From Octopus sinensis (Eukaryota): a DNA stretch of 64,000 nt. Location: NCBI RefSeq assembly GCF_006345805.1, contig NC_043007.1, positions 77,004,001 through 77,068,000 on the forward strand, in the 5' to 3' direction. Below the pieces are notes generated by a model. That model was not told the DNA's origin. It did no database searches and saw nothing but the letters and a program-made list of their open reading frames with translations. Position numbers and translations under genes: made by a program. This document shows, in pieces, positions 23,231 to 59,566 of this stretch. Numbering within the stretch: position 1 is the first letter of the stretch; each line of letters opens with the position of its first letter.

Positions 23231-23368
23231 AGTTGATGTAAATTTAATCCAGCGTGGAATGTTCCAGTAGTTATATTATAAATATGATTAAAATTCAAGT
23301 CCAACATTCGTAATTTTGGTAAGCCATTTAACACTCTGGAATCAATAGACCTGATCCAATTGTGGTGC
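23231..23368 (-). CDS. LRIG: LRIG-family gene, internal LRR exon (138 bp): (L)HHNWIRSIDSRVLNGLPKLRMLDLNFNHIYNITTGTFHAGLNLHQ(L)
   Basis: Minus strand ttttctttatttccatttctAG|exon|GTaaga; lies in ORF 23227..23460; aligns by eye to LRIG1 QHNKIRSV...LDLSLNNITEV...FPHG..IKEL as recalled. Confidence 0.92.
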
Positions 23369-25726
23369 CTAGAAATGGAAATAAAGAAAATGGTATTATG
23401 CAAAAGAGAAAACAAGAACTTGCGCATCAATAATATTAAATGGAATTCAGAATTATTCAATTCTCAGAGTTATATAAACAGAAAATAAGATTTGTCGTGT
23501 ATTTTACGATAAAAGTGTTGAATAATTAATAGAATGAGAGTGAAGAATAAGCATGTGTGAAAGTGTGTATGTGAGCGAGAGAAAGAAAGAGAAACGGAGG
23601 GAGAGAGAGAGAAAAAGAGAAGAGCAGGTGGTGGTGGTGGAGTAAGAAAGTACTTAGATTAATCTTTTGTCTTAAAACACAGAATCACAGTATTGACCAG
23701 ACCATCAGATGATGTTAAACACCGGTCACAATGTGCTTTGAATTCTGCCTTGATTGTGTCATTTTTTTTTTTTCTCATCATGACCCAAATTACTTAACTA
23801 GGTTATCTTCCCATCATCGTGGAGGCTTTCAAAGTGGTCTTTTCTGGTCCCTTGGATACAACTGGACAACTGCATGGGTCCACCTGCTATCTGTGTCATA
23901 AAAACACATTAGTAATTGTCCAGCCAATATTTTGTTGTGTTGTAAGCTTGCTGGGCATGGAAATTTAGATAGTGCTTTCAGTAAGCATACATGCATGGAT
24001 GTATTGTCCTCTTATCTCCCAAATACACCAATCCTTTTCCTTTAATAGCTTGTAAACTTTAGAGAATTCTTGAATTTTGAGATTATCTCCCCCTTCTTAA
24101 ATGGAGCTGGTCTTTATTTCCATAATAATTTTAACTCAAGAATTTATGTTGTATGGTATTTGATATATCTGTATTTGTCTATGTGGTTCAAACATATGTT
24201 ACTGGCCACTCAGAGTTATTTCTCTCAATTTATTGTCATGTATGTATATATGAACATATAAATAATGCAAAACTGTTAAATGAATTAGGTCTGTGTAGTA
24301 AGCTGTCAAGAATGTGTGAGGCGTATGTTAAGTTCCGAGATTAATGAAATAGGGGAAAGTGCTGTGAATAGACAGATGCCTTAAAAATAATTTTTAAATG
24401 TAAATGAAAAATCATTCACATACACATACCAAAAAACAAAAACAAAAAAATAACAAAAGCAAAACAACACCTGCTAAGCTTTACATTCTAAATAAATCAT
24501 GTAATAAACGAGTTAGTAAACAGTAAGGTTAGGTGGTCGTCACAGTATCAAAATATAATATAAAATTGTTGGTCATGCTAAGTACAGTGAGAGAGAACAG
24601 GGGGGGGGGGGAGAAGTGAAAGTAAGAAGGGGTGACAGGCAGAAACATGGAAGTTAAGCTTGAGGCCTGCAGAGGAAGGCAAGTTGGCTTTGATAATGAC
24701 CCCTATCAGTGTCGGATTTAGACAGAATAATTAGTGTCTTTGTTAGGGCTATCTTAAAATAAGAAATAACAGTAAGATGTTGGGGTGGGAGACTGGGTAG
24801 GGTAGGTAGGTGACTGTGGTGGTAGTTGGGGGTGGGGAGCAGGGGGACAGAAGGTAGTGATGTGTGTGTGGGGGGGGATAGTAGAAGTAAGGGCACTTGC
24901 TGCCGCTATAATTTCTATACTTGTGTCTTCACTTGAAGGGTTCTTAAGGATTTCAGGGACCAGGTGTCGCTGAAGAGAAACAAGGACAAACTGAAGTTTA
25001 ATTTAGTTGCACTGGAACACACACGTGTTGGGTGTGTGCACGTGCATGTGTTAGGTGTATGCACAAGTAAGATGCAGGTGTGTTTGTGTGTGCATGTCTT
25101 TGTGCTAGTGTTTGTCCCACACGCTACTTGACAACCAGTGTTGGTTTGTTAACATCCCTGTTACTTGCCAGCTCAGCAAAAGAGACTGAGAATAAATATC
25201 AAACTTCAAAAAAAAATAAAGAAAAAACAAAACAAAACAGAACACTGGGGCTAATTTGTTCCACTAAAACCTCTCAAGATAGTGTCCCTGCATTGCCACA
25301 GTTCAATATCTCCTTCCCTTCCTTTTCGTTTCTTTCCCACCCTCCTCTCTATGTCCACCTGCATTCATATGTAAACAACTAACAAAACTACCCTTTTCAA
25401 AGTTCTTGCTTCAATCAATACACCCATCTATATAGTAGTTTGTAAGAATTCACAAGCACTGCCTCTAAATCCAGCAGAACTTTTTGATTGGTGTAGTATG
25501 ATTAATATCCTGATGTCTAAACAACAAGTCAGTCCTAAGAACATTAAAGCAAAATTGTTCAAAGAAGTATGCATGTCGAATTAAGGGACTCCCTTAGAGT
25601 CCATGGAGATCCTGAATAATATCTAATAATATCTTATGGATGTGGTGAGGTAGTCCCAAATATATGTAGCAATGTATTAATAAAAATATAAAAATCTCCA
25701 TCTGTGAAATATTTCTCATTAATATA

Positions 25727-25997
25727 TATTGTTGCTATTATGCAAAAGTGTCGTAAGTCCAAAAGGTTGCTTTTTCAGAAAATGGAAAAAATAGTTTCAC
25801 CATTCCTCAGCAAAACCGTTGTACTACACTTTGACAATTTTTCATATCTTGGCATCTGATGCAGCTGGAGATACAATAGCTTGATCAAAAGAACTGGCTA
25901 TTGCAAGGAAAAATAAATATAGAAGAAAAAAAACAAAAAAAAAACACACTTGGCCTAATTTGGACATACGACAGTTTAACATAATAGCAATGACATA
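25727..25997. mobile_element. Old MITE with ~35-bp imperfect TIRs in AT-rich target (superfamily uncertain)
   Basis: tgttgctattatgcaaaagtgtcgtaagtccaaa (25730-25763) vs tttggacatacgacagtttaacataatagcaatgaca (25959-25995). Confidence 0.7.
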
Positions 25998-26113
25998 TAT
26001 ATGTTAAATATTTGTTTTTGTTCAGTTACGATAAAAAAAAAAACAATTTTATGTTTAACTGATGGCTTACTCTGTACTTTTGTAAAGTACAATTTATTAT
26101 CCTTAAGAATGTT

Positions 26114-26204
26114 GACAGTGACTTCGAATTTTCGGCCAGTTGAACCATCATCAGACTTCCTGTCTGACGATGGCTTAAAAGGTTGGAACTTTGAAGTTAC
26201 TGTT
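26114..26204. ncRNA. Inverted pair of degenerate minimal type I hammerhead ribozyme motifs (Penelope-like element type)
   Basis: Minus: agt-CTGATGA-t-ggtt-caact-ggcc-GAAA-attcgaa-GTC-act. Plus: gt-CTGACGA-t-ggct-taaaa-ggtt-GGAA-ctttgaa-GTT-ac. Arms 26114-26156 and 26162-26204 with a 5-nt spacer. Confidence 0.65.
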
Positions 26205-26244
26205 CATAAAATTCTTGTTTAAGAATAAAAAGGTATACATATAC

Positions 26245-26296
<52 letters not shown>

Positions 26297-27149
26297 ATGT
26301 GTGAGTGTGATTTAGCTTTGAAAAAAAAAAAAACAGGAAAAAACAGTGAAAACATTTAATAAGAAAGAAGAAAACCTAAATATAGACAGAGGTATGAATT
26401 GTTTAAGGATTAAACTGACTGTTGGACAGCATTGACTCAGTAAACAAGACAATCTAGAGTGAAAAACTAGAAATACAACTTCAGACTAGTGGCTGTGGAG
26501 TGTTATGTGAGGCGGCGGTGGGGGGTGGGGAACCAAGTCGAAGTGGGTGTGGTGGGAGTAGAAAGAAAGGTGAGAGGAGAGGAAGAAAGGTGTTGGTTTG
26601 AAATTTGCTCAGGGAAAAAAAGAAAGAAAAAAGCAAAATACAGAGGTGTAAAATGTTTTGCTGATAAGATTATAAGACAGTGTTAGTATGAATGCACTTC
26701 TCACATAATATCTCTGGTTTGAATGATTGTTAAAATAACTCCCACAATAAACAAACTATTTGTGTGCATGTGTGTATAATATATGTGTGTGCGAACATGT
26801 GTGTGTGTGTGTGTATGTATATGTAATCACATGGTTCCGGGTTAAGTCCCACTGTGTGGCACCTACAGCAAGTGTCTTCTACTATAACCTCAGGCCAACC
26901 AAAGCCTTGTGAGTGGATTTGGTAGATGGAAACTGAAAGAAGCCCGTCATATGTGTGTGTGTTTATATCCCTGTAACTTAGCAGTTCGGCAAAAGAGACC
27001 AATAGAATAAGTCCTGGGGTCAACTAGTTTGACTAAAGACAGAGCTCCAGCATGGCTACAATCAAATGACTAGAATAAGTAAAATAAGACACATACACAG
27101 ACATATATATATATATACACAAATATACATATAACCATACATACACATC

Positions 27150-27187
<38 letters not shown>

Positions 27188-28003
27188 TAGATAGATAGAT
27201 AGATAGATACATGAGTACATGTAGATACATATATGCATACATGTGTACACACAAAGTCTATATGGATGTATGTAGATATAATTAAAATTCAAGCCAATTC
27301 AAGAATTCACACTAGGTATGGTAGTGGTGGTGGAGGTGACGGCAATAGTGTTTGAAGGTAATTGTGGGATGTTCCAAAAATAACACAGGGTAACTGTCAC
27401 CAAGACTAGTTTTTTTTTTTTTTCCTTGTGACAAATTATTTCCTTGAGTCTAAAACAAATAAACTGCTTGGGGGATTTATGCTAAATGTAAAAAGAATGT
27501 TGGGAAAAGATTTTAGCACTGGCCAGCAGTAGCTTGAGGTCAGCAAGTGTACGACTGGAAGCCTGTAGAAGATTACTGAGATCTGCAGAATTCCCTTAGG
27601 AAGAAACTTTCGGTCTGCCCTCATGTCTATCTATGTAGGTTTACACATTTATAATTAGCAATTTTAGTCTAATTGTGCTATCATTATTGCGATAAGAACA
27701 AAGGTGTCGAGTTGGCAGAATTGTTAGTAAGCCAAACACAATGCTTAGCAGCATTTTTCGTAACTCTTCACATTCTGAGTTCAAGGCTCACTGATGTTAA
27801 TTTTGACTTTCATAGCTTAAGGGTTGATAAAATAAAGTACCAGTCAAGTACTGGGATTGATGTAATTGAATTAGCCTCTCTTCATAGAATTGCGACCCTT
27901 GAACTTTGTAACGGTCCAGTGATCCATTCAAGGGAATGTAAATCAGGTAACAACCCTTATGAGTTTCAGGGCTCAAGGATAAAAAAAAAAAAAATTATCA
28001 TAG

Positions 28004-28535
28004 ACATGGGTCTGGCTGTGTGGTAAGAAGCTTGCTTCCTAATCACATGGCTCAGGGTTCAGTCCCACTGTGTGCTACCTTGGGCAAGTGCCTTCTACCA
28101 TGGCCTTGGGCTGATCAAAGCACTGAGTGGATTTGGTAGAAGGAAACTGAAAGAAGCCCATCATATATATGTGTGTGTGTTTGTCTTTTACTACCACTTG
28201 GCATCTTGGCTAAGTGTCTTCTACTACAGCCTTAGGTCAACCAAAACCTTGTAAGAGGATTTGGTAAATGGAAACTAAAAGAAGCCTATAATGTGTGTGT
28301 GTGTGTGTGTGTCTTTGCACTTGCTTTGACTGATTGACAACTGATTGACAACTGGTGTTGGTGTGTTTATATCACTGTAACTTAGCAATTTGGCAGAGAG
28401 AGACTGATAGAATGAGTACCATGCTTACAAATAAGGAAAAAAAAAAACTATTGGGGTCAATTCATTTGACTAAAAGTTCTCCAGGGCAGTACTCTGGCAT
28501 GGACAGAATCTAATGTCAAACAAGTAAAAGATAAG
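28004..28535 (+). mobile_element. SINE family A, older copy with internal duplication of the CORE-like segment
   Basis: Head at 28004; segment cttgg(g)caagtg..ggaaact..aagaagcc occurs twice (28078-28160 and 28205-28287). Confidence 0.7.
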
Positions 28536-30077
28536 AGATAAAATATCATAGTTGTTTTACATAAGAAATCTTGTAACCCATTGTATCACTATGCTGGCAA
28601 TAAAATAGGTTCTAGCTGTATACCATATAGTAATGAATCAGCCACTAAGAGATTGTTTTTTTTTTTCTTTTTCGAGGGTTGTGTTTGTGTGTATCTATGT
28701 GCATGGAAGGATTTCCAAATGATCTTGAGGGGTTAACAAAACACTTGCCAGTGATTTCAGTTCTCTCTTGCTTATAGTGCCATGTCCAAGGGACATGACA
28801 CTTATTTCTATCAAGAACAACTAACCCATAGAATGGGAGGTACCTTGGGTTATGGTAATAGGAAATGATGAATCAACCATGCAGTCAGCCTTCAATAAAC
28901 CTAGTAATTCCTGTTCCAGAAACTTCTATTCTACTCTGAAATGGGTGGATAAGTTTATAAAATGAATCCAAGATCTGGATTTCTTCAATATGCAAAGCAA
29001 CATGGATTCTGGTTTATCTCTTTTGACAAAGACCTTATGATGATGTTTAGTTCCAGGTGGACCTTGACTGAATAAACCTATGATAAATGTTCCAGCTGTA
29101 GCCATCCAGTATTTCTGTAAGTAAGAAACTACACTGTCTTATGTGTCCTTTTTCTTTTACCATAGACAGTTGAGTGTGATTTAAAAGAGTTTTCCTGCAA
29201 TTTATGGATCTCAGTTGCTGGTTTACGGACATTCTGAGAAGTTTACTGCTAAAAGTAAAACTTAACTCTCAAAGAGATTTGGAATAGCTGTTCCTTGAAG
29301 CCCCTCATCTCAGAGGAAAGGAAAAGAGTATGCAAGGTGGGAGTGGGGAAGCAAAAAACTTAAAGTTTTTGAAAACAAAATTGCTTTCAGAATGCTAATT
29401 TCTGTTGTATGAAACAGAAATACTATAAAAAAAAAATTAGGACGGGTGGGGGTGGGAAGAGGAACTACTCTTTTCTTTTCCCATGGGGTAAAGCGCTTGG
29501 AGTGATAGCTTTTCCAACATTCTGCCAAAAATAAATCTATATATAGATCCTTTGTCAGTATAGAAAACAGATTCTAAACTGATAAAGTCGATAAATGGTA
29601 AAAAAATAAAAAGAAAAAAAAATAAGACAAAGAAAAATTAAAGGAGAGCACATTGGCAAAAATATGAGGAGACCTTCAAAACCAGCAGAATATTAAAAAC
29701 CTAAATTAAGGTGAGAATTGGTGGATGGTTGTACAATGGACTGATTTATTATACATATTACAAGGTGACCAGCACCACTTGAAAAGGGGAGATAATCTCA
29801 AGAATCAAGAATTCTCCAAAGTTGGCAAGCCTTTAAGGAAAAGGACAGGGTTATTGTCTGGAGATAAGACAGTCGGACGTGGGGGGTACATGTTTCTGGC
29901 TCAGACTTCATCAGCACAACACTTGTCTAATCTTTTTCTCCAGTAGCTAAGAAACTTAGACTTCATAGCCTACAGTCTGAGTGAAACAGGTAAAAGATAA
30001 TAAAAAAAAAAATGATTCCAACGTTATATGGAATGATAAACTCAAATCGAGAGAGGGGAGCTGTTACAACAGACTTT

Positions 30078-30492
30078 GGATCTTTTCGGTTTGAACGGCA
30101 GCTTTTAAACATAATTTCTAGGTAACTAGAAAATTTTAAACTTCGTATACTGGTAGAATGTGTTTATAAAACATCTTTTTCTCTTGGCTTTATTGAGAAA
30201 ATTCTATAGTTTGCAAGATATTTGTTTTTCTTCAATTTCTGCAATTTCAACCAATCACTGACGTCTATTGAGGTAAAAACATTCTGTGCCGTATGAATAT
30301 GTCCCTCGTTTAAGAAACAGATTAGGTTTATTTACATTTGTGAAGAAAAAAAAGATACCCTTCCCCATCCCTAACCACCTCTAACACTAAAAGAGATTGA
30401 AATGCAATAGATCGATTCTAGGGTCATAATTATGGGTGACAATTTCATATGACACCGCTAGAAAAAACTGCAGTTCAAACCGAAAAGATCCA
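30078..30492. mobile_element. Unclassified non-autonomous TIR element (family G), 21-bp target duplication
   Basis: TIR GGATCTTTTCGGTTTGAAC / GTTCAAACCGAAAAGATCC+A; ggagctgttacaacagacttt at 30057-30077 and 30493-30513. Confidence 0.9.
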
Positions 30493-31541
30493 GGAGCTGT
30501 TACAACAGACTTTAGTACTCAGTGGGCCAAAATTGGTGACCTGGTTATCATTACTGGTTGTTGCTGTTATTTCATGTGAACACTGCTTAATAAATATTTG
30601 AGGGACAATGTATAAAGACCACAACAGCCGCATTACATCATAAACCCCTATGTGTAGAGAAATCTTCAAGGGGAGTAAGCAGGAGAAGGGGGTGCATAAC
30701 AAATAGACCCTCTCAAAAACCAGATTCTCCTCCGCTCTTTCTCCACCACAGGCAACACACACACACACACACACACACACCACTACCACCGATGCAACCA
30801 CCACCACCACCACCAAAACTTGCTAAACTTTAGTCACAGTCAGATCATTCTGAATTTCACAGTACTTCTCTACTCATCCTTCCTGACAATGAGATTCTCA
30901 ATGGCAACTTGATCTGAGGAATAAGAGGGGAGAGAAAGCGAGAGAGAAATGGAGAAAGAAAAAAAGACATAGGGAGGGGGAAGCAGAAACAGTCAGAAAG
31001 CATGCAAGTCGGCTTCTTCCTCTTCCTACCTCCTTTATTTGCTGTGGAGGACTCTGCACTCCTCCACCACCACCTCTGCCTCGAACTGGCAGCCAAACAC
31101 CAACAGAGGTAGCAGTCGTAGTAGCAGAGTAAAGCAGAGGAGTGTTAACCCCACCATCACCACCAACAACAACAACAACACCACCACCACCTCCTCTTCT
31201 TCCCTCCTCTCTATAACACCTCAACTGGCTACCATGACAACTAAACTTAAACCTCTCCTGTGTTGCTGATAAGAGAGAGGAAGAGAGGTAAGGAAAGAGA
31301 GAGAGGAAGAGAAGGAAGGAAAGAGAGAGAGAGAGAAAGGGTGGTGGCAGAACAGTGTGGATCTGATACCCTGGCCAAGAAACATTTTGTTTTCACAGGT
31401 GTCACTTCCACTACATATGGGTGAGTACTTGAGTGGGTGAGTGTGTATGTAGGTGTGTGAGTACTTGTGTCTATATATATAAAACATACGTGTGTGTGTG
31501 TGTATGTATGTATGTATATATATATATATAATATATATATA

Positions 31542-31596
<55 letters not shown>

Positions 31597-32092
31597 GTTA
31601 AGTATACAGTTCATCTTTATCTGTATCAGTGTACACATATCTGCTCATGTGTACACAAAGACACACACACACACATACGCATGTAACCACATAACTGTGT
31701 GAGAGTATGTGTGTGAATGCCAAACAGAAGTGTAAGAAAGTGTGTGTGTGTGTGTGTCTGAAACAGAAGCTATATAACACGAAGTAGGACAGTACCAACT
31801 CCAACACTTTGAACACATAATTAACGCCACCCACCATGGCTTCTCCAGATTTCAGCAGTTACAAATGTTGGGAAGCTCTTTGTGGTCACTACACTTGCTA
31901 GTTATAGCAGCCAGAAATATCTTATCATCGGACACTGCAGTCATGAATATACATAGTGGGGAAGGGGGAAATATAGTTGCAACTTCAGTGATTGTCTGTC
32001 TAGCTATCTATCATCTACTTGTTCCAGTCACTGGATTGCAGCCATGCTGGGGCACCCCACTTGACAGGCTTAGCTAAATAAATTGACCCCAG

Positions 32093-32509
32093 GGATCTTT
32101 TCGGTTTGAACGGCTGTTTTTAACATAATTTCTAGGTAACTAAAAAAATTTTAAACTTTGTATACTGGTAGAATGTGTTTATAAAACATCTTTTTCTCTT
32201 GGCTTTATTGAGAAAATTCTATAGTTTGTAAGATATTCGTTGTTGTTTTTTCTTCAATTTCTGCAATTTCAACCAATCACTGACGTCTATTGAGTTAAAA
32301 AGCATTCTGTGCCCGTATGAATATGTCCCTCGTTTAAGAAACAGATTGGGTTTATTTACATTTGTGAAGAAAAAAAGATACCCTTCCCCCCCACCCCTAA
32401 CCTTAAAAGAAATTGAAATGCAATAGATCGATTCTAGGGTCATAATTATGGGTGACAATTTCATATGACACCGCTAGAAAAAAACTGCAGTTCAAACCGA
32501 AAACATCCA
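32093..32509. mobile_element. Family G TIR element, second copy, 7-bp target duplication, inserted in a family A SINE
   Basis: Near-identical to 30078-30492; accccag at 32086-32092 and 32510-32516; removing it restores SINE text aaattgaccccagtact. Confidence 0.9.
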
Positions 32510-34194
32510 ACCCCAGTACTGTTTTGTTTAGTTTTACAAGTTTGGTGCTTTTTACGTCAGGGTCTTTTGCTGAACTGCTAGGCTATAGAGGACATTGATT
32601 ATTAAGCAGGGTGAGTATGACAAGGGAACAAACACAAACACACAAGCACATATATATGAGGAGCTTCATACAGTTTCTGTCTGCCAAATTTACTTAAAAG
32701 GTATTGGTCGACACGGGCCTAAAGGTGTTGCATGCTAAGATTGAACCAAGAGTGACATGGTGGCAAAGCAAGCATTTTAGTCACATGGCCACAACTGTAT
32801 CAATCTATTTCATATCTGTTAATTGTTTCAGTCATTTGACTGTGGCTATGCTGGAGCACCGCCTTTAGTTGAACAAATTGTCTCCAGGACTTATTCTTTG
32901 TAAGCATAGTACTTATTCTATTGGTCTCTTTTGCCAAACTGCTACATTGGTTGTCAAGCAATAGTGGGGGACAAACAGACACACAAATACATACATATGT
33001 GTGTGTGTGTGTGTATGTATATATATATATATATATATATAGGACAGGACTCTTTCAGTTTCTATCTACCAAACCCACTCACAAGGCTTTGGTCGGCTCA
33101 AGGCTATAGCAGAAGACATTTGCACAAGCTGCCACACAGTGGACTAAACCAGGAAGCATGTGGTTGAGGAGCAAGCTTCTTACCACACAGCCATTATCTA
33201 AAAAGCAAAAGAGAAAAGGTGCGTGGCTTGGTGGTAAGAGTAATTCACCTCACAATCGTAAGGCAATGTGCTGTGTTCTTGAGCAAGACACTTTATTTCA
33301 CATTGCTCTAGTTCACTCGGCTGGCAAAAATGAATTGTTCCTGTAATTCAGTTACGTTCTGTGTCACACCTGAATCTCCCCAAGAACTATGTAAAGCCTG
33401 TGTATGTCTGTGGAGTACTCAACCACTTGCACGTTAATTTGCCAAGCAGGCTGTTCCACTGATTGGATCAACTCAAATATTTGTCATAATCACCAGAGTG
33501 CTATTTTTCTTTTTATCTATCTAGTTATCTGTCTGTCTGTCTATCTACCAATTTACACACACACACACACATACCATAACAGGCATAAACATGAATTTAT
33601 GACTGCATGGTTGTCTACATATGTGTGTACAGTTGAAAAGTGGTAGTGAGTTGTTATTACCAACTATTAAAAGACTAATGTAGACAATAAAAAGTTTCAT
33701 CTTGTAAATCCTTGGCAAATAACTGCACTTTACAGCAAGAAAATGGTAGCTTTGGTAATGTTCACCATCTACCAGCTGGTGCCAGATGGAAGCACTCATT
33801 CCCTTCGAGTTAAAAAAACAACAACAAAAAACAAAGACATAAAAAAAAAATAGTGGCTACATGAGAGTTGTAGAGATATTCAGGATGTGAAACAGGAGTT
33901 CAATGGCCTCAAGGTTTGATGTTTTGCAAGATGAGGAGGAAGAGCTACTCTTTTACTTGTTTCAGTCATTTGACTGTGGCCATGCTGGAGCACCGCCTTT
34001 AGTCAAGCAAATCAACCCCAGGACTTATTCTTTGGAAGCCTAGTACTTATTCTATTCATGTCTTTTGCCGAACTGCTAAGTTACGGGGATGTAAACATAC
34101 CAGCATCGGCTGTCAAGCGATGTTGGGGAGACAAACACAGACACACAAACATACACACACACATATATATTCATCGAAAAGCAGAAAATATGTT

Positions 34195-34244
<50 letters not shown>

Positions 34245-34296
34245 CACACATTGAATGCTGTTCAGAACTAATACTGCTGCCATTGTGAGAAATGAA

Positions 34297-34347
<51 letters not shown>

Positions 34348-35174
34348 GTGTATGTCTATGTATGTATGTATGGGCGTGCATGTACTTGTGTTAGTCTTTT
34401 GTCCACCCCACAACCACTGCTTGACAACCAGTGTTGGTTTGTTTATATCCACATAACTTAGCAGTTTGGCAAAAGAGTCCGACAGAATAAGTACCAGGCT
34501 TAAAAAAAAAGTGAAAATAATCACTAAGGGTGATTTGTTTGACCAAAACCCTTTAAGGTACTGCCCCTGCATGGCCACAGTCCAATGGCTAAAACAAGGA
34601 AAAGCTAAAGTAATAAACACAACAAAAAAGTAATAATAAAATAAAAATCACTGAATGAAATAATTAATTAATAAATTTGAATACGAAAATGTATTTTTCG
34701 TCAATGACAAAAATAGTCTCTAAGACAAGTTAAGAAATAAACGGTCAGAATAAATAGCATTGATTTGCAGAAGAGAATGTCAGCTTTTGTCTGGGTAGTG
34801 AGTGTAACAATTTTATACATAAATAAATCAAACATCTCTCTCTCTCTCTCTCTTGCCTTATCCAAATCCCCCCACCCTTGCTTTACTGCCAATCAATGGT
34901 GTGGTAGTACAAATTGGAATTAATTTTAATGAATGTGAACATCTCAGCGAAGAAAATATAAATTTGTGTATACGGAGGAGATAGTGGGGGGGGGGGAATT
35001 TGATTAGATGACAAAGTAGAAAACTAGTAGGCAATGAAAATTGTACAAGTTGTTGAGTCACTACAGTGTCGGGTGGGGGAGCTCATTGAGCAAGAGAGAG
35101 AGAGAGAGGAAGAGACTGTGAAGAAGAGAGGAGATTTCATGTGTGTATGTATGTGCCTATCAATCACACAAGAA

Positions 35175-35500
35175 CTGGCCCTCCGTCGGTTACGACGATG
35201 AGGGTTCTGGTTGATCTAATCAACAAAACAGCCTGCTGGTCAAATTAACATGCAAGTGGCTGAGTACTCCACAGACATGCATACCCTTAATGTAATTCTC
35301 AGGGAGATTCAGTGTGACACAGAATGTGACAAAGCTAACCCTTTGAATTACGGGTACAACTCAATTTTGCCAGCTAAGTGGACTTGAGTGACATGAAGTA
35401 AAGTGTTTTGCTTAAGAAGACAATGTGCCCCCCAGCTATTGAATTCATGACCTGACAAATTTGGGCCAAATATCCTAACCTCTTAGTCATGTACCATCAC
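35175..35500 (-). mobile_element. tRNA-derived SINE family C
   Basis: ccgtcggttacgacgatgagggttc..aacagcctgct..gggagattcagtgtgacacag..aagtgttttgcttaag; related copies at 7690-8000(-), 33218-33500(+), 41638-41910(+), 56370-56600(-), 58015-58230(-); A/B-box head visible at 41638. Confidence 0.75.
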
Positions 35501-35519
35501 TTTCACACACACACACACA

Positions 35520-35657
35520 TACAAGGGGGTGCTGAAAAGATCCTGGTGTTAGGTAAAAGAAAATACAGGAGGATCAGTTAATTATGATTTCATTCAACAT
35601 TTTCCCCTCTCAGATTCACACACTTATTGCAATGGTCCTTCAGTTTTTCGAAGCACG
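35520..35657 (+). mobile_element. mariner-like MITE end
   Basis: TA-CAAGGGGGTGCTGAAAAG start, typical of mariner TIRs; no partner end found. Confidence 0.5.
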
Positions 35658-36779
35658 TCATGTTCTTAATGAAAAATGATTTCATTTCATGTTGCTCTGC
35701 AGGTGGGAGAGTGGAAGAATCATTACTGTGCTGGCAGAAATGTTTTATAGTATATATTCCCATTCTCTATGTTCTGAGTTCAAATCCCACCTGCATGGAG
35801 AGGGCAACAAGAAATCCCGCGAGTATTTATCCCAAGTCTAGTCACAGTAGTCAAAGTTCCAGTAATCTACTTAATAGCAGCAAGGGAGAGTTTGGCCCCT
35901 CCCAGATCATAAAAAGTGTACTGGAGAAGGTTCATAGGACTTGCCTAAGGGCAGACCACCACTAGACTGCATATATATATGAAGCGAGAAATAGACAGCC
36001 AAACAAGGAGTGATGCAATGAATAATATGTGCAATACAAAATTTCTAAATTACTTGAAATTTGCCACTTAGTTGGGGGAAGAAAACAAAAACCTAGTGGC
36101 AATTATCAAAGACTAAAAAAGAAAAATCAATTTCATGAAAACAAGGCTAATTTCACAAAATTAGTGTACATGCTTAGGGGGAAGCTTTGTTTGCAGGAAA
36201 CAGGATGTTTTTTGCCATATTATCTTTCATCGCTATAAAACACCATTTGGCACATCAGGCCTTAACTTCTTTAACTAAATTCTGGACCTTCATCCACAGC
36301 AAAATATTTTTTTTTAATAAATTATGAAAACTCATACAGGCCAAAAATCTTCATAACTCTTTTTCTGTAAGCAAAACCGGTCAGTAGGTCAAAGTAGGTT
36401 ATGCATATAATGCCATGTTGATGAGACCCAATGTTAAAACCTGACCATAGTTGTCCCACTGCTTGCAAATAAAGATCAGACTTTCCCTTAATCTTCCTCC
36501 ATTGATGATTGAATATTCTAACACATGAAACTTTGATAACTTAAGCAAGACTGATACCAATATGTACAAATTATATCAGTTCCAATATATTTAGATACCT
36601 ACACATTCACATGATGTGTGTGTGTGTGTATACTGCAGTTTAGCAAGTTTTCAATGATATATCTGCTTTAAGCATGATACAAAGATTACAATTTTTAACT
36701 AATACAGCTGCCATCACTAATAATGAATGTGTGTGTGTGTGTGTGTGTGTGTATACGCGAATGAATATATATATATATA

Positions 36780-37191
36780 GGCGCAGGAGTGGCTGTGTGG
36801 TAAGCAGCTTGCTAACTAACCACATGGTTCCGGGTTCAGTCCCACTGCGTGGCATCTTGGGCAAGTGTCTTCTGCTATAGCCCCGAGCCGACCAATGCCT
36901 TGTGAGTGGATTTGGTAGACGGAAACTGAAAGAAGCCTGTCGTATATATGTATATATATATATGTATGTGTGTGTGTTTGTGTATCTGTGTTTGTTCCCC
37001 TAGCATTGCTTGACAACCGATGCTGGTGCGTTTACGTCCCCGTCACTTGGCGGTTCGGCAAAAAGAGACCGATAGAATAAGTACTGGGCTTACAAAGAGA
37101 ATAAGTCCTGGGGTCGAGTTGCTCGACTAAAAGGTGGTGCTCCAGCATGGCCGCAGTCAAATGACTGAAACAAGTAAAAGAGTAAAAGAGT
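36780..37191 (+). mobile_element. SINE family A, young full-length copy
   Basis: ggcgcaggagTGGCTGTGTGG...GGTTCAGTCCC head, CpG-rich body, gtaaaagagta tail. Confidence 0.9.
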
Positions 37192-37764
37192 ATATATATA
37201 CACACACACACACACACACATACATACATACACATATATGGTAGTGTTTATCACCACTCTAATGAGGGTATTCTCTAAGGGATGACAATACTGCTGTTTT
37301 AAACCCAGGAAGATATCTCCTCCAGCTGGTTTATTCAATGTGCTTTCCACACTTGATATTTATTGCAAGTGGTAGATAAACTTCTGCCACCCTAGCTTCG
37401 AAACCACCAGGCCATGTGATTTCAATCTTCTTGGATCTCTTTGGTGAAGGGCACTCATTTTGCCAGGCATGGCAGCAGTTTAATCTTGCTTGCAATATAT
37501 GTAGAAAATACAGTGTCATACAATCACTGATTTTGTAACTAGGAAACTAGTCCATTAGAAAACCTCTGTTCGAGATAGAAGCAGTATATGAACTAAAAGG
37601 TGGTGTATATTGCCACTTTAATATGCATGTGTGTGTGTATCAATGAATTGTGTATGAATGATTGTGTATGAATGATTGTGTATATTTGCATATATAACTC
37701 TTTAAAAATATAATGCAATATTTGTAGATACATATACATGTATTTTTTTTTCTATCGCTTGATC

Positions 37765-37800
<36 letters not shown>

Positions 37801-39544
37801 CTGTCTATATATATATAATTTACTGACATATATAGGGAGGAAAGGAGCCGTATGAGGAAGGGGGAGACAATGAAAAAGAGAAAGAAGAGATGGGTGTGGG
37901 AGAAGAAAGGCAACTCAATAGCAGATACAGTTAAATTAAAATTTATCACCTATCTGACCTCTGACCCAGTTGTGCTCTGCCACCCCCTCCTTCCAACCCA
38001 TAACTAACCATAGTGCAGACTCCCTAGTTTTTTTTCTTTTTTCTATGTCAGCTTACTGTCAGCCTAATTTGAAGACAGTTAAGTAACAATTATGGAACAA
38101 TTACACGCACTGTGCAGCACTAAAGAGAAACAAGCCCATTCGAAATTGTTTATACACACATGAAGATATATATACACACACACATAGATAAACTGAAATT
38201 CAAGTCAGTCAACAAAGAACTTGGGGAAATGTATAAATAGAGACTTTTCCCATTAATGTGTCTGTTATTGAGCGAACATGTATGTATGTATGTATGTATG
38301 CACGTATGTACATATGTATGTATATGCACGTGCACATGCAAAGGAAAATAGAACTCAGACAGACACACATGTGCAGGTGTGGAGTTGATTGTTTTACACT
38401 GGAAGATTTTAAAGTAACACAAGCACAATTTCAGTGCAAGTTAAAAAAAAATGAGCTCAGACAGAGTGATGTGGTGTGATGAAGCGAGCAAGATGTGTGC
38501 CAGTGAGTGTGTGTGTATGTGCGCGTGCATGTGATGTGTTGCAATGGGTTATGTTATGCACACACAGTCAGGTGTGTGTATGTGTATGTGTGTACGTGCA
38601 ACTGACATCAGTTATTTTGAATGCACCGGGAGAACTCTAAAACAATATTGTTTGAAAGCAACAACAGAGCAATATTAATTAGTTTGTAAGCAAGTTAAAT
38701 TAGACCCTGGGTACTTTCTTATGATTGACACCCAATTTGTAACTTACTCAAGGTGCAGGCATGGCTGTGTGGTAAAAAGTTCGCTTCTCAAACCACACGG
38801 TTTTGGGTTCAGTCCTGTTGCATGACACCTTCGGCAAGTGTCTCCAACTAAGACTGACTAAAGCTTTGCGAGTGGATTTGGCAGCTGGAAACTGAAAGAA
38901 GCCAGTCCTTTGTGTATGTGTGTGTGAGTGTGTGTTTGTCCCCAACCACTGTCTGACAACCAGTGTTGGCTTGTTTATGACCCTATAACCTAGCAGTTTG
39001 GCAAAAGAGACTAACAGAGTACACGGAGAAAAAGTACCAGTAAGAATTTATGAGAAAAAGGCAATGAATTGGAGGGCAAAAATGTAAAGAAAACGAAATG
39101 TTTTGGACCAAAAAAAATCTTTCAGAGAAACAAACAATCACCCAGTCTTTTGCTTTTTTCTTTCTCCATGATGTAGTGATCGCTATTCTGAAAGTCTGTT
39201 GATCAACTATTACATCAGTCTCATGATTGTAAAAGTTGTTTTACTAAGTTGCCGTCATCATCATTTAATATCCATTTTCCAAGCTGGAATGGATTAGACG
39301 GTTTGACTGGGATTGGCATGCCGGAGAGCTGCGCCAGGCTCCACTCATCTGTTTTGGCTTGGATTCTATGGCTGGATGCCATTCCTAACACTAAGCACTT
39401 TACAGAGTGTACTGGATATTTTTACATGTCACTGGCACTACCAATAACCATGAAAAAAAAAATTTGGCTGTTGATAATAGGAAAGTATCAAGCCATGAAT
39501 ATAGTATAACAACAAATTGTTGTATATGTATAACATACCCTAAC

Positions 39545-39730
39545 TGAGTGATTCTCAACCAGGGTCCATATAAGATTTTGTTGTTAAACTTTACGTGCAA
39601 TAAATTGATTAAACTTCTACCATACATAAAATATTCAAACATAATTTTATAATATAATTCTGAATAATATTTCATTATTAAAATATAACAGGATTTTTTA
39701 AACATCGAATGAATATAGGTATCCACCTGA
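39545..39730. mobile_element. hAT/Charlie-like MITE fragment
   Basis: agtgattctcaaccagggtccatataagatt is the reverse complement of the end at 42797-42828 (aatcttatgtggaccctggttgagaaccac); related fragment near 57100-57280. Confidence 0.55.
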
Positions 39731-42446
39731 GTTATGTATGCACACACAGTCAGGTGTGTGTGTTTGAAAGCAACAACAGAGTAATATTAATTAGTCTGTA
39801 AGTATGTCCCAACCCCTCATCTCACCAGATAAAGCTGCTTCCCACCTCACCTGCAGCTTCAGGGTTTGTAACCTCGCAAGCCGCATGGTAACCTTACTAG
39901 GGCTGATGGCAAATAAAAAGCCCACAGTATATGATGTAAAGTGGTTGACATAAAAGAAGGTGCCCAGTCACAGAAACCATGCTAAAGCAGACACTGGAGC
40001 ACAATGCAATTCTTGGATTCACTGGGTCCTGCTAAACCATCCAAAACATGTCAGCAAGGACATTAAATGATATTGACCATGATTTCTGTATTAATTTTAT
40101 ATTTATTCATTATTTTAATTATTTTTTTTGTTTGGCATAAAATCGATACAAACACACACACAGACTCTGAAAGTACATTTTAATGAAACGAGGAATGGAA
40201 AAACATGACAAAAGCAACTTTTTGGAAAAAATACAAAAAAAGAACAAGAACGAAAGTGCTTTTTGAGCAAAAAGAAAAAAAATAAACTGCTAAAAAAATT
40301 AAATGGTAGGTGAGGGTAAGTGAAAACAATGACATATGTAAAGTAGAACTGTGTGTGTGTATATATGTTGGTGGTGGTGGTGAGGGCAAAGAGATGAAGG
40401 TGTGTACAATAGAAAACTGTTCAAGTGTTTAGTAGAGTTAGAGGTATAAAGTGAATTAAGTAGTTTGGTGTGCATAATGTATGTATATGTGTGTGTATGT
40501 ATGTATTTGTGCTACAGTGACAAAAAGTGAGGAGAAATTTTGGGAACTGCTATGAACATTTAAAGCTGTCTCAAGTGAAAGCAGCAGCAATATTGAGCAG
40601 GTAGAATAATGATGGTGATGAGGATGTTGATAAAAAGAACTGGTGGATGATGAGAGTTGGTGGAGAATAATATTGCTGACTGTTCTCAATTTAGGGGGAG
40701 GATTGTTTGGCAAATGTGTACATGTGCTTGCATACATGTGTGATTTTTTTTGTTTTTTTTATATATTTTATTTTTAATCAATTCAGAAAAGATAAAACAG
40801 AAACAAGAAGAATTGTCTTTCAGATTAAACAGATAAAGAAAAAAAAAAAAAAAAAGACAGCGGATAGAGAAAAGAGATAAATTGTATTGATTGTAGATAG
40901 AAGGAAAAAAAAAAGATAAACAAAAAAAAAACAAAACCAAATAAAACAATTCATTGCATTTCATGTGCTTTTGTGTGTGTGTGTGTGTGTGTTTATGTGT
41001 ATATGTACAAGTGTGTGTGGGTGTATGTGCATGTATGTAAAAATGTAATGTAAATATTTCTATTGCCTTCCCCCACAGCCCACCACCACAAGGGTTCTTA
41101 GAATCCAACACTTTTGGGTCTGATTTCTTAGTAAGAAGTGGATAAGAAATGAATCTCCTACTGGATAAGATATGATGCCAGTCTATTGTGCATGTCATAT
41201 ATACCAGTCCTTTTATGTTAACTAGGTGAACTTGAAGCATGTTTCTAATGAAGCGTAATATATTCATCCAACCCATGCTGGCATGACAGAAATGGACATA
41301 AAGACAAACAAAATACATACATACATACATGTGTGTGTGTGTGTATGCAGAAGAACAATTTTGAATCAAAATCTGTAAAATATACTCGTTAACAAACCCC
41401 ATCTGACCTGGAACAGTCTGTAATATTGTCTTCCATTGATGCCCACCACCCTTATTTCTTTCCATTATTGTTTTACCATGTTAGAACATAGTGTGTAGGG
41501 TATAGCTGTGTGTGTGTGTTTGAATGAATCCATTTCTACCTTCATATATGACACTGCTTAACAAAACACTGTCTATACCTATGCCCTGTTATCTAGCAGT
41601 GCAATAAATAGGTATCACTGAAATATGTACTGGGTGTGAAGGCTTGTGGTTTAGCGGTTAGGATATTTGGCTCACAGTCATAAGGTCCTGGGTTCAATTC
41701 CTGGTTGTGTGTAGTGCCTTTGAACATCGCACTTTATTTCCTGTTAAAAACGAGTTGTACCTATATTTCAAAAGGCCAACCATGTCACATTCTGTGTCAA
41801 TCATCCTAAGAGTTACATTAAGGGTACGTGTGTATCAGAGAAGTGCTCAGCCATTTGCACATTAATTTGATAAACAGGGTGTTCCATTGATTGGATTAAC
41901 TCAACATAACTGCCAGTACAGTGGGGGATGTGACTGACTAAAGCCCTTCAGCAAGAGTACCATATTTACCGAGTGGTGGTATTAAGTTTGGCATAGCCTG
42001 GATTAATACTGGTTGAATCCAATCTTAATGCATACTGATCTGGCAATTCCATAGAAGCACATAAAAGAGCAAGATTAGCTCTAAATCAGTGGTTCTTCCT
42101 TGATTACCATTTTATTCTGGTGGATCTGATAGACATTCAATGCTTAAAGGTGGCAGGGTGGCAAAAACATCACCACACTGGGTGAAATGCTTAGCGGTAT
42201 TTGGTATGTTTTTATGTTCTGAGTTCAAATTCTGCCAAGGTTGACTTTGGCTTTTAACCTTTTGGGGTCAATAAATTAAGTACCAGTTGCATATTGGAGT
42301 CGATTTAATCGACTGCCCTCCTCTCCCAAAAATTTCAGGCCTTGTGCTGAGAGTAGAAAAGAATGTTTAAAAACTAGTATTATAGATACTTCTTTCATAA
42401 TTCCTATTTTGAATTTTACATGTTCTCTTGTGTAAATTTGCAATAG

Positions 42447-42611
42447 CATCATCATCATCATTGTTCGACCGTGGTCGAGACAATGGAATTTACCATGCTA
42501 CGCCAGACTTCACGGTCCATCATGGCATTACGGAGGTCCTGTTGCTAGATGCCTGTATCCCTGGAGATTACATCAGGGTAGGAGAGTGTGCGCCCTCTGG
42601 TATTGCGAGTA
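42447..42611 (-). mobile_element. RTE-clade LINE 3' end, young, 5'-truncated
   Basis: Minus translation TRGRTLSYPDVISRDTGI*QQDLRNAMMDREVWRSMVNSIVSTTVEQ* then (TGA)n tail; tagcat on both flanks. Confidence 0.75.
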
Positions 42612-44276
42612 GCATTCTCCCTGAGAGAACATGTTTCAATGGCCAGAAACTTGTTAAACATTTTGAAATATTAGACAAACAACTTAGCAGTTTATTGCTT
42701 CTTGCAATAAATACAGCCAAATCAAAATTTTTCTGTGGACCCCCAAAATACGGCTGTGGATACCCAATTTACTATTTTGCTTGCTCGGAGCCCCAAAAAT
42801 CTTATGTGGACCCTGGTTGAGAACCACAGCTCCAAAAGACTAGCAGGACAGACATGACTGAAGTGATCAACCATTAGTTTTAATGAGAATTAAATTAAAA
42901 GAATTTTGGCATGAGAATGTTTTGTAAAACAATATGTAAGTGAAACTTAGAGCATAGAACAGTTAATAATTATCTCATAAATATGAAACAAAAGAATAGC
43001 AACAAGTACAAAGGAATAGTTTTGCCTATTGTTATTATTATTATTATTGTTGTTGTTGTTGTTTCAGAGAGTAGTTAAACCAAGAATCCACTTCAAAAGT
43101 TTGCAAGAACATAAGAGCTGCTAAGATAAGGAAAACAGAAAATGGTTTTTAAAAGGAATTCTAAGAAAATATGGAAAAAAAAAAAAAAAAAAAAGGAAAG
43201 AGAAAAAAAGAGGGTGTGCAGAGTTGAGAGAGAGAAAGAAAGAGGGGGGTGCATGGAGTTTTGAGTTGTGTATTTTGTGAGTGAGATGGTGTGGAAGTTG
43301 TTAGAAGTTTAGCAGCTTGTGTTGGAAGGAACAAACAATCCAAGCAAAAGACAAAGGGAAGAATAAATAACTGGTATGAAGATGTAGTGACAGATATTTT
43401 GTGTGTGTGTGTGTGTGAATACTACACATATGGAGAGAGAAAGAGGAGGGAGCAGAGAGAATCAGGGCGGTTAGGTTTGTTTGGAAGGAGGTAGTGTGGT
43501 ATAGCGATGATAGTGGAGAGGTATAGGTGGATGGGATCAAAGCAATATCAGACAGTAGTCTGTAGGGCTGCCCAAATGAGCTGATTTTTGTGCCAAACAT
43601 TTCAACATGTGATACTGCTTACTGTTGGTGGTCACTGATTAATGGCAAGCACACACACACACAAACACATAGAGTCTGAGAAAACAGTTGGAAAACTTTA
43701 AAAAAGAAAAAAATAGCAACCCCCCCTCAAAAAAAAAAAAACACAAAGGTTCCATCCCTTCACCCATTTCTAACTCAAGCTGGCTGTTTATTTATTTATT
43801 TTTTTCCCCTTAGACTTTTCAGAAGATTCTTATTTTCAGTGAAAACAAGATAAAGAAAAGCTGATTTGAAAGGAAATTTAGCATTTGTCTTTAGTTTAAA
43901 TTTCTTATTTTTAGTTCAAGTTTCTTTTATGAGAGTTGCCAGCAGCATTTTTCAAGAATTTTAAATTAGTTCTGCAGGTCTTATTTACAGTTCAAGTTTG
44001 GTAAATAAATAAAAAAAAAAGTAATCATATATATTTATACACACACACACACACACAAAGAGAAAGCTGGGGGTGTTGTATATTTCTCTAAGCTTGAAGT
44101 ATTGACAGGTGTTGGGAGTGGTCGAATTCCTCACAAAAGGCTTGGAAACCTTTGAGTTTTCAAACTGTCCCCAGGGAATCAGGGCCAGCTGACTAAATAA
44201 AAGACTGATTTCCTTCAACTGTGGCCATCACACAACATGGACATTAACAAGAGTGTTTGATATTAGAAAATGATCT

Positions 44277-44793
44277 TTAACCCTTTAGTGTTCCCATTAT
44301 TCTGACAAAATTAATCCTTTTTTATCCACATTGTTTTGAACTAATCAGGCATTATCTTGTAGCTATGAGATTTTGATGAGGTAGCTGTTAATTTTTAAAA
44401 CGATATTGTAGGGTTGGTGTGAGAGACCAGATCTGGCCAGTTTGAACATAAAACAGGTAGAATATTTTTGGCCGGATATGACCGGTTTAAATGCTAAAGG
44501 GTTAAAAAGCAGTTTCAGCTGATTTGCTGACATCTTTTACTGCAGCCATGCTGGGGCATCACCTTAAACCTTTTGCATTCAAGTTACTCTGTCAAGTGCA
44601 ATGCTTTTTCATTCACGTTTGTTTTTCATTAATCTTGCATTTATTTTGTAGCTTAGAAATTTTGATGACATAACTGTATATGTTTAAAACAGCATTGAAG
44701 GATAAGTGTGATAGGCTGGATCTGGCTGGTTAGAACATAAAACAGCTAACATATCTGGACCAGATATGGCCAGTTAAAATGCTAGAAGGTTAA
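44277..44793. mobile_element. Two adjacent family E MITEs, the second nested in a family A SINE
   Basis: TTAA-bounded 44277-44505 and 44564-44793; SINE A sequence on both sides of the second. Confidence 0.75.
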
Positions 44794-45155
44794 AGAACTT
44801 TAGTCCAATAAATTGACCCCGGTACATTTTTTTAATGCCTGGTACTTATTCTATCGGCATCTTTTGCTGAATTGCTAAGTCATATTAATGTAAACACACC
44901 AATACCAGTTTTCAAATGGTGATGTGGGACAAATAGACACAAAGACATACATACACACTGAGCTTCTTTTAGTTTCTGTCTACCAAATCTACTCACAAAG
45001 CTTTGGTCTGCCCAAGGCGTCGACCAGTGGGACTGAACCTGGAAACATGTGCTTGGGAAGCAAACTTCTTACCACACACCCACACCTGCAATTCTATTAA
45101 CTACACAAGAGTCAGTTTACACTCAGGACTGACCCCCAATTAGGAAATAGGACAT

Positions 45156-45820
45156 TAATCCTTTTGATACCAACCTAAGACTGCTTTTGATTCAATGATA
45201 CAAACATCCTGTTTAACCCTTTCGTTACCAACCCCGCTGAAAATGGCTCTGGTTCTGAGTACAAATGTCTTGTTTCCATAAGTTCTGAATTAAAATCTTC
45301 CACCAAACTTTAGTCACAATTTATGTTCCTAACACTAGCTGAATGATAACCAAGTTATTTTACTAAATTCTTTGTAATATTTAAAGTAATTGAAAGAAAC
45401 AGAGCATTTCATAATAAACACAGTAACAAAAGGGTTAAATCCTTTAGCTTTTAAAATCGCCACTATCAACCCAAAATATTCTACCTGCTTGATGCTCAAA
45501 CTGGTCAGGTCTCTCACACCTAACCGACAATGTCATTCTAAGAATAAACAATAACCCTCATCGAAATCTTGGAGCTACAAAATAATATATAATGATATCG
45601 AAACAATGAGAATAAATCAGCATTTTGTTTGACAGAATAATCTGAATGCTAAAGAGTTAATGTTATTTAAACTGAAATTTGCCTTTAAAATTTCATGTTA
45701 CTCGGTTTCAAATGCCATTTTAATAATGGCAAAGTTATTTTATTTAAATTCCTTATTATTTTCTAAATAAATTAAAATGGAAGCAGTGTAGTTTAACAGA
45801 AATATGGTAACAGAAAATGA
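45156..45820. mobile_element. Nest of piggyBac-type MITEs: family F (45213-45438) and family E (45435-45660) inside an older F-like element
   Basis: TTAA-CCCTTTCGTTAC...GTAACAAAAGGG-TTAA directly followed by an E copy; flanks resemble a diverged F. Confidence 0.75.
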
Positions 45821-46689
45821 GAAATTAATATCATTTTTAAGGGTCTTTCAGAATTAAGTTTATATTACTGCATAACACACACACAAAATGGATGATAAGT
45901 AGAAAATAAGTAATGTTTTAAACGTATTAAAGTTTTAATGAATTCATCATAGATTTATGCAGTATCTTCAGAGAATAAACATTGCCATCGAGTTTATCAG
46001 TAAAAACTGGAAAGTACACACACACAAAATATATACACATATACAGATATGCAATACACACATGTAGGTTGATAAGCCATATCTTCATCTAAATGATCAA
46101 ATCAACATTCTTAGGTTTACTAATAAGACCAAACAACAGTAACAAGAAGGAGTCCAAGTCCAAATAGCAGTGTGCTAGTACTACTACCACCACTACCATC
46201 ATTATCACCACCAGCAGCAGTAGTAGTAATAGTACATCGGTTGAGATTAGATAAGAGAAAAACAGATCAAATCAGACTGGAGGTTCATGTTTTAATTTAC
46301 TGGTTTGGAAGTGAAAGGCCAAGAGAAAAAGTTCTAATAATACATTACTAAATCAATGACTCATACTTCAGACCTCGACCCCCTCCTCCTCTTTAATTCA
46401 GCTCTTCTCTCATTACAAGTATATATAAACAATTACAATCATGTCTAATCCCTTACACTAGATTGATTGCTCTGGCAAGATTTATTATATTATAATGCAT
46501 TTTCAAAGAGTCATCAGTTTCTGTGTTCATTCATGAAACCATATTCCTCAATCATAGCTTTATCTTGTATCATGATCAGCTTGAGATTACTTCTTTAATT
46601 CGTCCAGTCCTAACATTTCTGTCCACACAAAACAAAAACTCTTCCAACCCAAAAGCTACTCTACCGAACACCAGTGGGTTTATCTTATA

Positions 46690-46900
46690 CAAATTTAAAT
46701 ACTGTATTTCCGATCCGAGCAAGCTGAATAACATCTGCGATTGTGTGTCCATACTGCTCTTGCTAGTCTTGCATGACAGGTGGACGCCCTTCCCTCTTCA
46801 TTTCATCTTTAACCTCTCCATCATTGCTTTATATGCAGAAACCGTTTAAGAAATTTGGTAATTATGCATTTGACATGAACAGGAAGAAATGTAAAGAATT
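46690..46900 (-). mobile_element. Highly decayed RTE-like LINE 3' fragment
   Basis: Minus translation pieces KAMME..K..RG...GHTIADVIQLAR resemble the RTE C-terminus. Confidence 0.35.
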
Positions 46901-47970
46901 GCGAAGGTCAGTCAGCTCCATCTATCCATCCTAATTATGATATTAATGCTAACATGGACTGAAGGCTTAAATTGATGAGAGAAAGGCTTACTTGCCAACA
47001 TTAGTTATGCATGGCATCTGTCTCAAACTTTAATTATAGCACTGTTACTCAGAGTAGTAACAGCAATGATGTTTAGAAATAGTTATAGTATTAATAATAG
47101 TTATAATACTGATATAAGAGTGCTTATAATACTGGTATTAAGAGTAATTAGAGAGGTGATAGGAGAGAGGCAGTAGTACTGATATAACGATCTTTATCTT
47201 CTACCATTTACTGGTTCCAGTTAGTAGACTGTGACCATGCTGGAGCAACACCTTGAAGAATTTTTTTTTAGCTGAATGAATCGACCCTGGTACTTATTAT
47301 TTTTTCTTGAAGCCTGGTGCATATTCTATCAGTCTCTTTTGCTAAACCACTAAGTTACAGGGCTGTAAACATACCAACACCACTTGTCAAGCAATTGTGG
47401 ACACACAACATACACATACATATAAGACAAGTTTCTACCAAATTCCCTCACAAGGCTTTGGTCAACCAAAGGCTTTAGTGGAAGACACTTGGTCAAGGTT
47501 CCATGCAGTGGGACTGAACCCAGAACCATGTGGTTGAGAAGGAACTTCTTACCACACAGCCACAAGTGTTTATAGGATCAATACTAGAGTAGTCACAAAT
47601 CTATGGTCAGCTGCATGTCTTAAACTTGTGGCTTTTACCAAATCTTAATCCATGCAGCTAAAATCCACGATAACAAACCCAAACTTCTTTATTCCTCAAG
47701 CCATCTCTATAAATGTCTTGAGTAGGGAGTTTTATGGGAGGGAAGGGACGTCTGTCTGCATTTTACTTCTAAGAAAGCTTAGCAACCAACAAGGCATGTT
47801 TTGAATGAAATACAATTAAATCCTGTTATAAGCAATTCATTTACAGACAACAATAGGGATTATTGCAAGTTAGTCATAAAGATAACAGGATTAACTAAAT
47901 GACATGCAGCATTTGAAATTAAAATGAACAGCAAAAATAAAAAAAAAGAAGTCAGAAGGTGTCTACTCAC

Positions 47971-59501: not shown

Positions 59502-59566
<65 letters not shown>

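Follow-up and report, generated by a model that had tools for sequence, protein, structure and literature searches.

Paired, head-to-head ends of a Hydra-clade Penelope-like element in an LRIG intron of Octopus sinensis

A head-to-head repeat in an LRIG intron

The window, the whole 64,000-nucleotide stretch of Octopus sinensis DNA analysed here (contig NC_043007.1, positions 77,004,001 to 77,068,000), carries a repeat at 26011-26229 within an intron of an LRIG gene. An LRIG3-named protein matches minus-strand exons 55677-55606, 48041-47970, 23367-23230 and 356-213 at 100% identity, and exons flank the site, as the original prediction had it. The inverted hammerhead motifs described there are confirmed as part of a copy of a dispersed repeat. 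This repeat is formed by two head-to-head, 5'-truncated ends of a Penelope-like element (PLE) of the Hydra clade, each a hammerhead with an optional tail of ~80 nt, beside (TA)n. The unit is longer than first described, and the minus arm extends to 26011, tail included. Positions within an arm are numbered from the first base of stem I (+1), with the cut after +39. The features of the locus are:

23368..47969, minus strand: LRIG intron holding the insertion (flanking exons 48041-47970 and 23367-23230)
26011..26157, minus strand: long arm, pLTR end of a Hydra-clade PLE (aligned to the family majority sequence from +2 to +152; tail profile match)
26093..26098, minus strand: AATAAA in the AT-rich spacer of the element (AATAAA lies at +60..+78 in 111/208 arms)
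26120..26154, minus strand: long-arm hammerhead core (sequence and alignment; predicted to be masked by a hairpin)
26158..26161, no strand: head-to-head junction, locus-specific (sequence; 34/34 adjacent junctions of the tail-picked set differ)
26162..26229, plus strand: short arm, second pLTR end, +3 to ~+70, without tail and with a broken core (alignment; inverted-arm end at +55 to +85 in 33/33 twins)
26224..26229, plus strand: AATAAA at the short-arm end (sequence, alignment)
26234..26306, plus strand: (TACA)n(TA)n(TG)n microsatellite, likely the insertion target (sequence; tail-end microsatellite in 73/95 copies)

The long arm lies on the LRIG sense strand and consists of a hammerhead from +2, an AT-rich spacer and the tail. 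Its innermost part, 26114-26156, pairs with 26162-26204 at 31 of 43 positions. RNA of 26090-26230 is predicted to fold with z-scores of -6.85 (minus strand) and -9.70 (plus strand), none of 200 shuffles being as stable. On the minus arm the hammerhead parts are present as predicted: CTGATGA (26154-26148), an extra T, a GGT/GCC stem II, GAAA (26133-26130) and GTC (26122-26120), which places the predicted cut at 26120/26119. This copy had been called one substitution from canonical; the A for C at 26129 is indeed there, but stem I has only 3 bp, one of its pairs and the 15.2-16.2 pair being missing. The motif is also found on the plus arm, with CTGACGA (26164-26170) and GTT (26196-26198), although GGAA stands in place of GAAA and stem II contains wobble G-U pairs. 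AATAAA occurs on each strand, and that of the plus strand is 3 nt out of register with the AATAAA of the family. A covariance-type search, suggested with the original prediction, did not recover the motif: an Rfam scan of 24000-28500 gave 26 matches at E<=10, with no hammerhead among them.

Several other repeats lie in the window. A high-copy MITE-like element (25722-26000) adjoins the insertion, with 42-nt terminal inverted repeats that are 83% complementary and flanked by TA; contig cover in DNA runs is very deep for it. Copies of another interspersed repeat, which we take to be SINE-like, occupy 26824-27037, 28040-28474 and 25139-25186, and the same repeat breaks up many PLE copies elsewhere. 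Within 59246-60103 a stretch of ~640 nt is duplicated almost exactly and in direct orientation, as shown by translations that recur in the ORF list, and 17949-18300 (plus strand) is presumably a fragment of a LINE RT C-terminus, judging by its motif.

The repeat family and its parent element

A genome search with the feature gave 509 first-look candidates, 40 of which were scored. All 30 loci fetched (window included) were twins with opposite arms; 25 had a tail on one arm, five had no tail and none had two. An exact 20-nt tail motif matched the genome 185 times, against 0 for the control, and this count is a floor since only the least changed copies match. The first 95 of these matches in genome order, taken without regard to their 5' ends, make up the tail-picked sample. 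It contains 33 adjacent twins and 39 copies with an inverted partner within 700 nt; a separate tail query found 13 twins among 30 loci (query locus included). None of the 33 adjacent twins is two-tailed, and in all of them the inverted arm ends at +55 to +85 and never carries the tail. The 34 adjacent junctions in this set are mutually different, and solo arms and ORF-linked arms are common. Thus, the head-to-head layout was remade with each insertion, contrary to the proposal that the feature is the relic of a bidirectional module.

Consistent with the (TA)n insertion preference of the Hydra clade, the tail end adjoins a microsatellite in 73 of the 95 copies, compared with 65 of 285 control windows. 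No target-site duplication was readable; the flanks in the window are microsatellite. Two near-identical copies, L117 and L118, lie ~22 kb apart on opposite strands and are likely a local duplication.

The arms of one locus share more variants than expected by chance (123 vs 81+/-7; 2000 permutations, 62 loci), but they are only slightly more alike (79.6% identity) than arms of different loci (77.2%). This points to one common template followed by separate decay, although gene conversion between the arms could alternatively account for the shared variants. Intact cores were found in 9 of 167 full arms, four of the nine having been picked by a pattern that demands the core, and the minus arm of the window is one of these nine. 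None of 62 twins has both cores intact, and the C-to-A change seen at 26129 recurs in 10 of 279 arms. Targeted inactivation of the minus copy, another suggestion of the original prediction, is therefore unneeded. Two rearranged loci were also seen. In L069 (2210-2248), a single case, the body is joined to an arm at ~+39 and the ribozyme is deleted up to the predicted cut. In L143 (1451-4188), a 2.5-kb copy whose truncation point lies within the RT directly adjoins an inverted hammerhead arm that begins at -3, so that a short arm can stop at the ribozyme start even with a long partner.

Upstream of the hammerhead, solo arms run into a common AC-rich non-coding body (~1.2 kb) and then into GIY-YIG and RT motifs. 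First-look candidates (which are not copy numbers) become scarcer towards the 5' end, with 2302 for the tail and 1927 for the arm, then 824, 119 and 58, as 5' truncation predicts. In four loci (L152, L158, L162 and L163) the tail is followed without a break by a leader of ~60 nt and then by the start of the ORF, giving the tandem pLTR-ORF layout that, with an inverted 5'-truncated copy and a one-sided tail, is characteristic of insertions of EN+ PLEs. Just after the tail, the leader of these four opens with a GCTCTG...GTGCTTT-like motif; such words flank the ORF start or 3' end in sea-cucumber and copepod Hydra sequences (PMC8557442, by eye).

The motif order in L140-L145 indicates a single ORF with RT followed by a C-terminal GIY-YIG endonuclease, all copies seen being broken, and tblastn with two homologs (P0001 and P0003) covered RT and EN parts across the same loci. 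Few copies reach the RWK motif and the DKT that replaces DKG in the clade, which were found as KRFRWK and PDKSS in L145, FDKST in L140 and ILRW in L148. Among 25 loci, the CxCX5C linker is intact in one, and CPL, CxxC.NE and EL..SC.H, the latter two representing the CxxC and CxH motifs, were each found in eight. The CCHH motif appears to be absent from the EN, with CxxC between VY and YIG in 0/25 loci, a weak result given the decay of the copies. Colinear copies give a parent length of ~3.5 kb, above 3 kb owing to the long 3' region; Hydra-clade PLEs tend to be 'generally short' (PMC8557442). No PLE family was returned by Pfam for four ORF fragments or for P0001/P0003. Taken together, motifs compared by eye with the supplement of PMC8557442, rather than a tree, place the parent in the Hydra clade of C-terminal-endonuclease PLEs (Craig et al. 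2021, PMC8557442), which includes Hydra-1_Obim. The hammerhead differs from that of Hydra-1_Obim, so that the family is a distinct one.

GAAA, G10.1-C11.1, stems I-III and NUH are all present in the family majority sequence. A plain majority call of the arms also gives CUGA, which is misleading here. Arms chosen irrespective of the core have CG at +6/+7 in 31 cases, TG in 36 and CA in 30. They resemble in this the CpG sites +25 and +33 (p=0.10), whereas true TG sites rarely show CG or CA. This behaviour points to CCGA, not CUGA, as the source, and among exact genomic matches with the downstream CpGs kept there are 12 of CCGACGA and 4 of CTGAYGA. The parent core was most likely CCGACGA (U4C), and a minor CUGA master may have existed beside it. 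Where the original prediction called for a genomic consensus with CUGANGA, GAAAC and GUH intact, the ancestral core thus largely departs from it. The CUGANGA core, present in both window arms and absent from the inferred ancestor, is probably a product of CpG decay, a textbook-looking core that arose from an atypical one. Since CpG decay of CCGA can yield a canonical-looking CUGA, hammerhead calls and majority consensuses in old repeats can mislead. U4C is reported to reduce in vitro activity considerably and still to allow viroid infectivity (PMC3088659).

Copy ends, origin of the twins and present function

The 5' ends of copies gather in the first 13 nt of the ribozyme, with a TATA box ~32 nt upstream, rather than at the cut. 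We counted 39 ends per 513 nt in +13..-2; the corresponding figures were 43 per 4453 nt for +14..+72 and, farther upstream, 7 per 1270 nt, one of these seven (L179) being an alignment run-through. The pile-up was also observed in 51 solo arms, five arms with a faint inverted match having been dropped (15 ends per 276 nt vs 27 per 2224 nt, p=2e-5). At the cut (+36..+44) no excess was found (8 per 681 nt vs 35 per 3772 nt, p=0.33).

Several sources of these ends were considered and rejected. Against cleavage stands the lack of an excess at +36..+44, and against the collapse of long palindromes the persistence of the pile-up in solo arms. Stalling at the ribozyme structure would be expected on its 3' side near +44, where there is no peak. 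As to splicing at the stem I CAG, described for D. virilis (PMC4209133), no GT occurs in the 160-nt upstream majority sequence and copies starting at +4 are preceded by no shared exon, a donor farther away being conceivable.

At -32 the parent carries TATATAAAG; only one other TATA-like word occurs in 821 nt, and such a word falls in an 8-nt window in ~1.6% of cases by chance. CGCAGT stands at the ribozyme start of the parent. The promoter reading uses the TATA-to-start spacing and the Inr consensus. In the six new Hydra consensuses in the supplement of PMC8557442, compared by eye and without a control, a TATA run precedes stem I by 31-34 nt in two cases, and YCAGTT stands at stem I in two. 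TATA and Inr were also noted in the pLTR of a rotifer PLE (PMC3846280), and an internal pLTR promoter was shown for D. virilis Penelope (PMC2377424). The pile-up of ends and its position relative to the TATA box suggest a transcription start at the ribozyme, and the copies may begin where RT runs off the 5' end of the RNA.

We conclude, with a probability of about 0.9, that two head-to-head 5'-truncated Hydra-clade PLE ends were inserted here and have since decayed, RT having likely been primed off both strands of a TA-rich target, and that the feature likely has no function now. One cDNA would start at the tail end (~+158) and the other at ~+70, both would run to the RNA 5' end near the first ribozyme bases, and the cDNA ends would be joined by microhomology. 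The template would be uncut RNA, with two primers copying one molecule. This priming scheme is deduced from end positions only. The protein of the anole PLE Poseidon PAc nicks and extends both strands, has two internal RT starts bounding the tail and uses uncut RNA in vitro (PMC11167929); two such starts fit arm ends near +70 and +158. Classical, non-overlapping twin priming was also looked for, and of three candidates only L220 fits, L200 and L256 having internal deletions.

How the two arms came to face each other could be explained otherwise. A single cDNA might snap back and copy itself by self-priming, as proposed in PMC3846280, which would suit both the variants shared by the arms and the many junctions at palindromes such as stem III. 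The 5' extent of the tailed arm would then have to equal or exceed that of its partner, yet the tailed arm is shorter by >10 nt in 15 of 39 pairs and longer in 3 (p=0.008), a test that later deletions could blur. That the tailed arm is more often the shorter than the longer speaks for one RNA copied from two primers rather than for a tailed cDNA folding back on itself, and we regard fold-back as unlikely. Similarly unlikely is a short non-autonomous master (hammerhead plus tail, or the palindrome) mobilised in trans by Hydra PLE proteins. In its favour, 89 of the 95 tail-picked copies end <=90 nt upstream of the ribozyme, most of them inside it, and 61 body-bearing and 201 short arms, the former picked with one query, differ at +48 (p=1e-4) and +51 (p=0.001). 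This difference, like the lack of a readable target-site duplication, counts against our preferred explanation, and it could reflect a separate short master. However, both variants of +48/+51 occur in both arm classes, +19 (p=0.53) and +60 (p=0.07) show no difference, and a whole palindrome as master is contradicted by junctions that all differ. A palindromic DNA-transposon MITE whose likeness to a hammerhead arose by chance would also give an inverted repeat flanked by TA-rich DNA. Its symmetric termini and interior should be fixed, whereas the arms are unequal, the centre varies, two tails occur in 0/33 twins, solo arms exist and the sequence is continuous with an RT-endonuclease ORF, so that this explanation can hardly be entertained.

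An exapted or once-functional module for bidirectional cleavage and polyadenylation, acting on LRIG pre-mRNA, is nearly as implausible. The minus arm does lie on the LRIG sense strand, is followed by AATAAA and belongs to the few arms with an intact core. Against this, its CUGA is likely the result of CpG decay, core bases +5 to +11 are predicted to be paired with a probability of ~1, the plus core is broken, and minimal hammerheads of this kind did not cleave as monomers in the published accounts (PMC4209133). AATAAA is ordinary element sequence in the family, and tandem transcripts would have to read through it; the hexamer as such turns up 152 times across the window. Folding predictions place the LRIG-sense arm inside a hairpin (-43.9 kcal/mol, vs -9.3 kcal/mol for the hammerhead-constrained fold) and give stems I and II a near-zero probability. 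Transcription of LRIG would produce the antisense arm ahead of the sense ribozyme, with which it would pair, and no cleavage is predicted. Reading the feature as a decayed PLE insertion, we consider it most likely inert, and the locus itself ordinary. The original interpretation is therefore only partly supported: its link to PLEs and minimal type I hammerheads was right, and the bidirectional module and the targeted inactivation are not supported.

More tentatively, and with the odds somewhat against it, these stubs may record the PLE cycle itself. Transcription would start from a TATA/Inr promoter on the first hammerhead bases, so that the ribozyme caps the mRNA 5' end, and an RT dimer would prime twice on uncut RNA (~+70 and ~+158) to give overlapping twin-primed products. 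With its U4C ribozyme weakened, the family would have reached many hundreds of copies, if not more. If true, PLE transposition can do without efficient cleavage. What PLE hammerheads do has been called unclear (PMC8557442), and the family bears on this question with a footprint that can be counted: ends lie at the ribozyme start rather than at the cut, and a long arm is strictly paired with a short one.

Comparison with known systems

Published precedents exist for Hydra PLEs in octopus, for inverted pLTRs, for inverted 5' copies with a one-sided tail (PMC8557442, PMC3846280) and for pairs of hammerheads on opposite strands (PMC4209133). In the literature searched, which included few subscription papers, there was no report of a start-site pile-up, of overlapping PLE twin priming or of a U4C PLE master.

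The parent has in common with the Hydra clade the RWK, DK[S/T] and RLINP motifs, the CxCX5C linker, CxxC and CxH around E/N, and the (TA)n target. It also shares a hammerhead close to the 3' end, in which CTGANGA is usually followed by an extra base, stem II is short and stem III is palindromic (PMC8557442 File S2). It differs in its hammerhead, unlike that of Hydra-1_Obim, in the ~1.2-kb 3' non-coding region and in being old and degraded; in addition, every Hydra hammerhead in File S2 of PMC8557442 has CTGA, whereas the ancestor of this family most likely had CCGACGA. Penelope-13_HM has an inverted 5' copy with a hammerhead on each strand (PMC8557442).

Metazoan non-LTR retrozymes are likewise non-coding and PLE-related and carry type I hammerheads (PMC7229834; 10.64898/2026.07.22.740005). 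They are, however, head-to-tail tandem units, whereas the head-to-head pair here is traceable to an ORF-bearing parent, and the family is not a retrozyme in this sense. With anole Poseidon PAc (Frangieh et al. 2024, PMC11167929), the proposed mechanism shares two RT starts bounding the tail, extension of both strands, an AT-rich target and an uncut RNA template. PAc belongs to another clade, head-to-head products are not treated in the passages compared, and the tail here is ~80 nt.

The inverted pLTR insertions of EN+ PLEs (Arkhipova et al. 2013, PMC3846280; Cervera and de la Pena 2014, PMC4209133) share the head-to-head arrangement, a tail on one arm only, a palindromic junction, TATA and Inr-like pLTR motifs and dual opposite-strand hammerheads. 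In those insertions the cores lie ~100-700 bp apart, whereas here both arms are cut down to the ribozyme, with the two cores ~10 nt apart.
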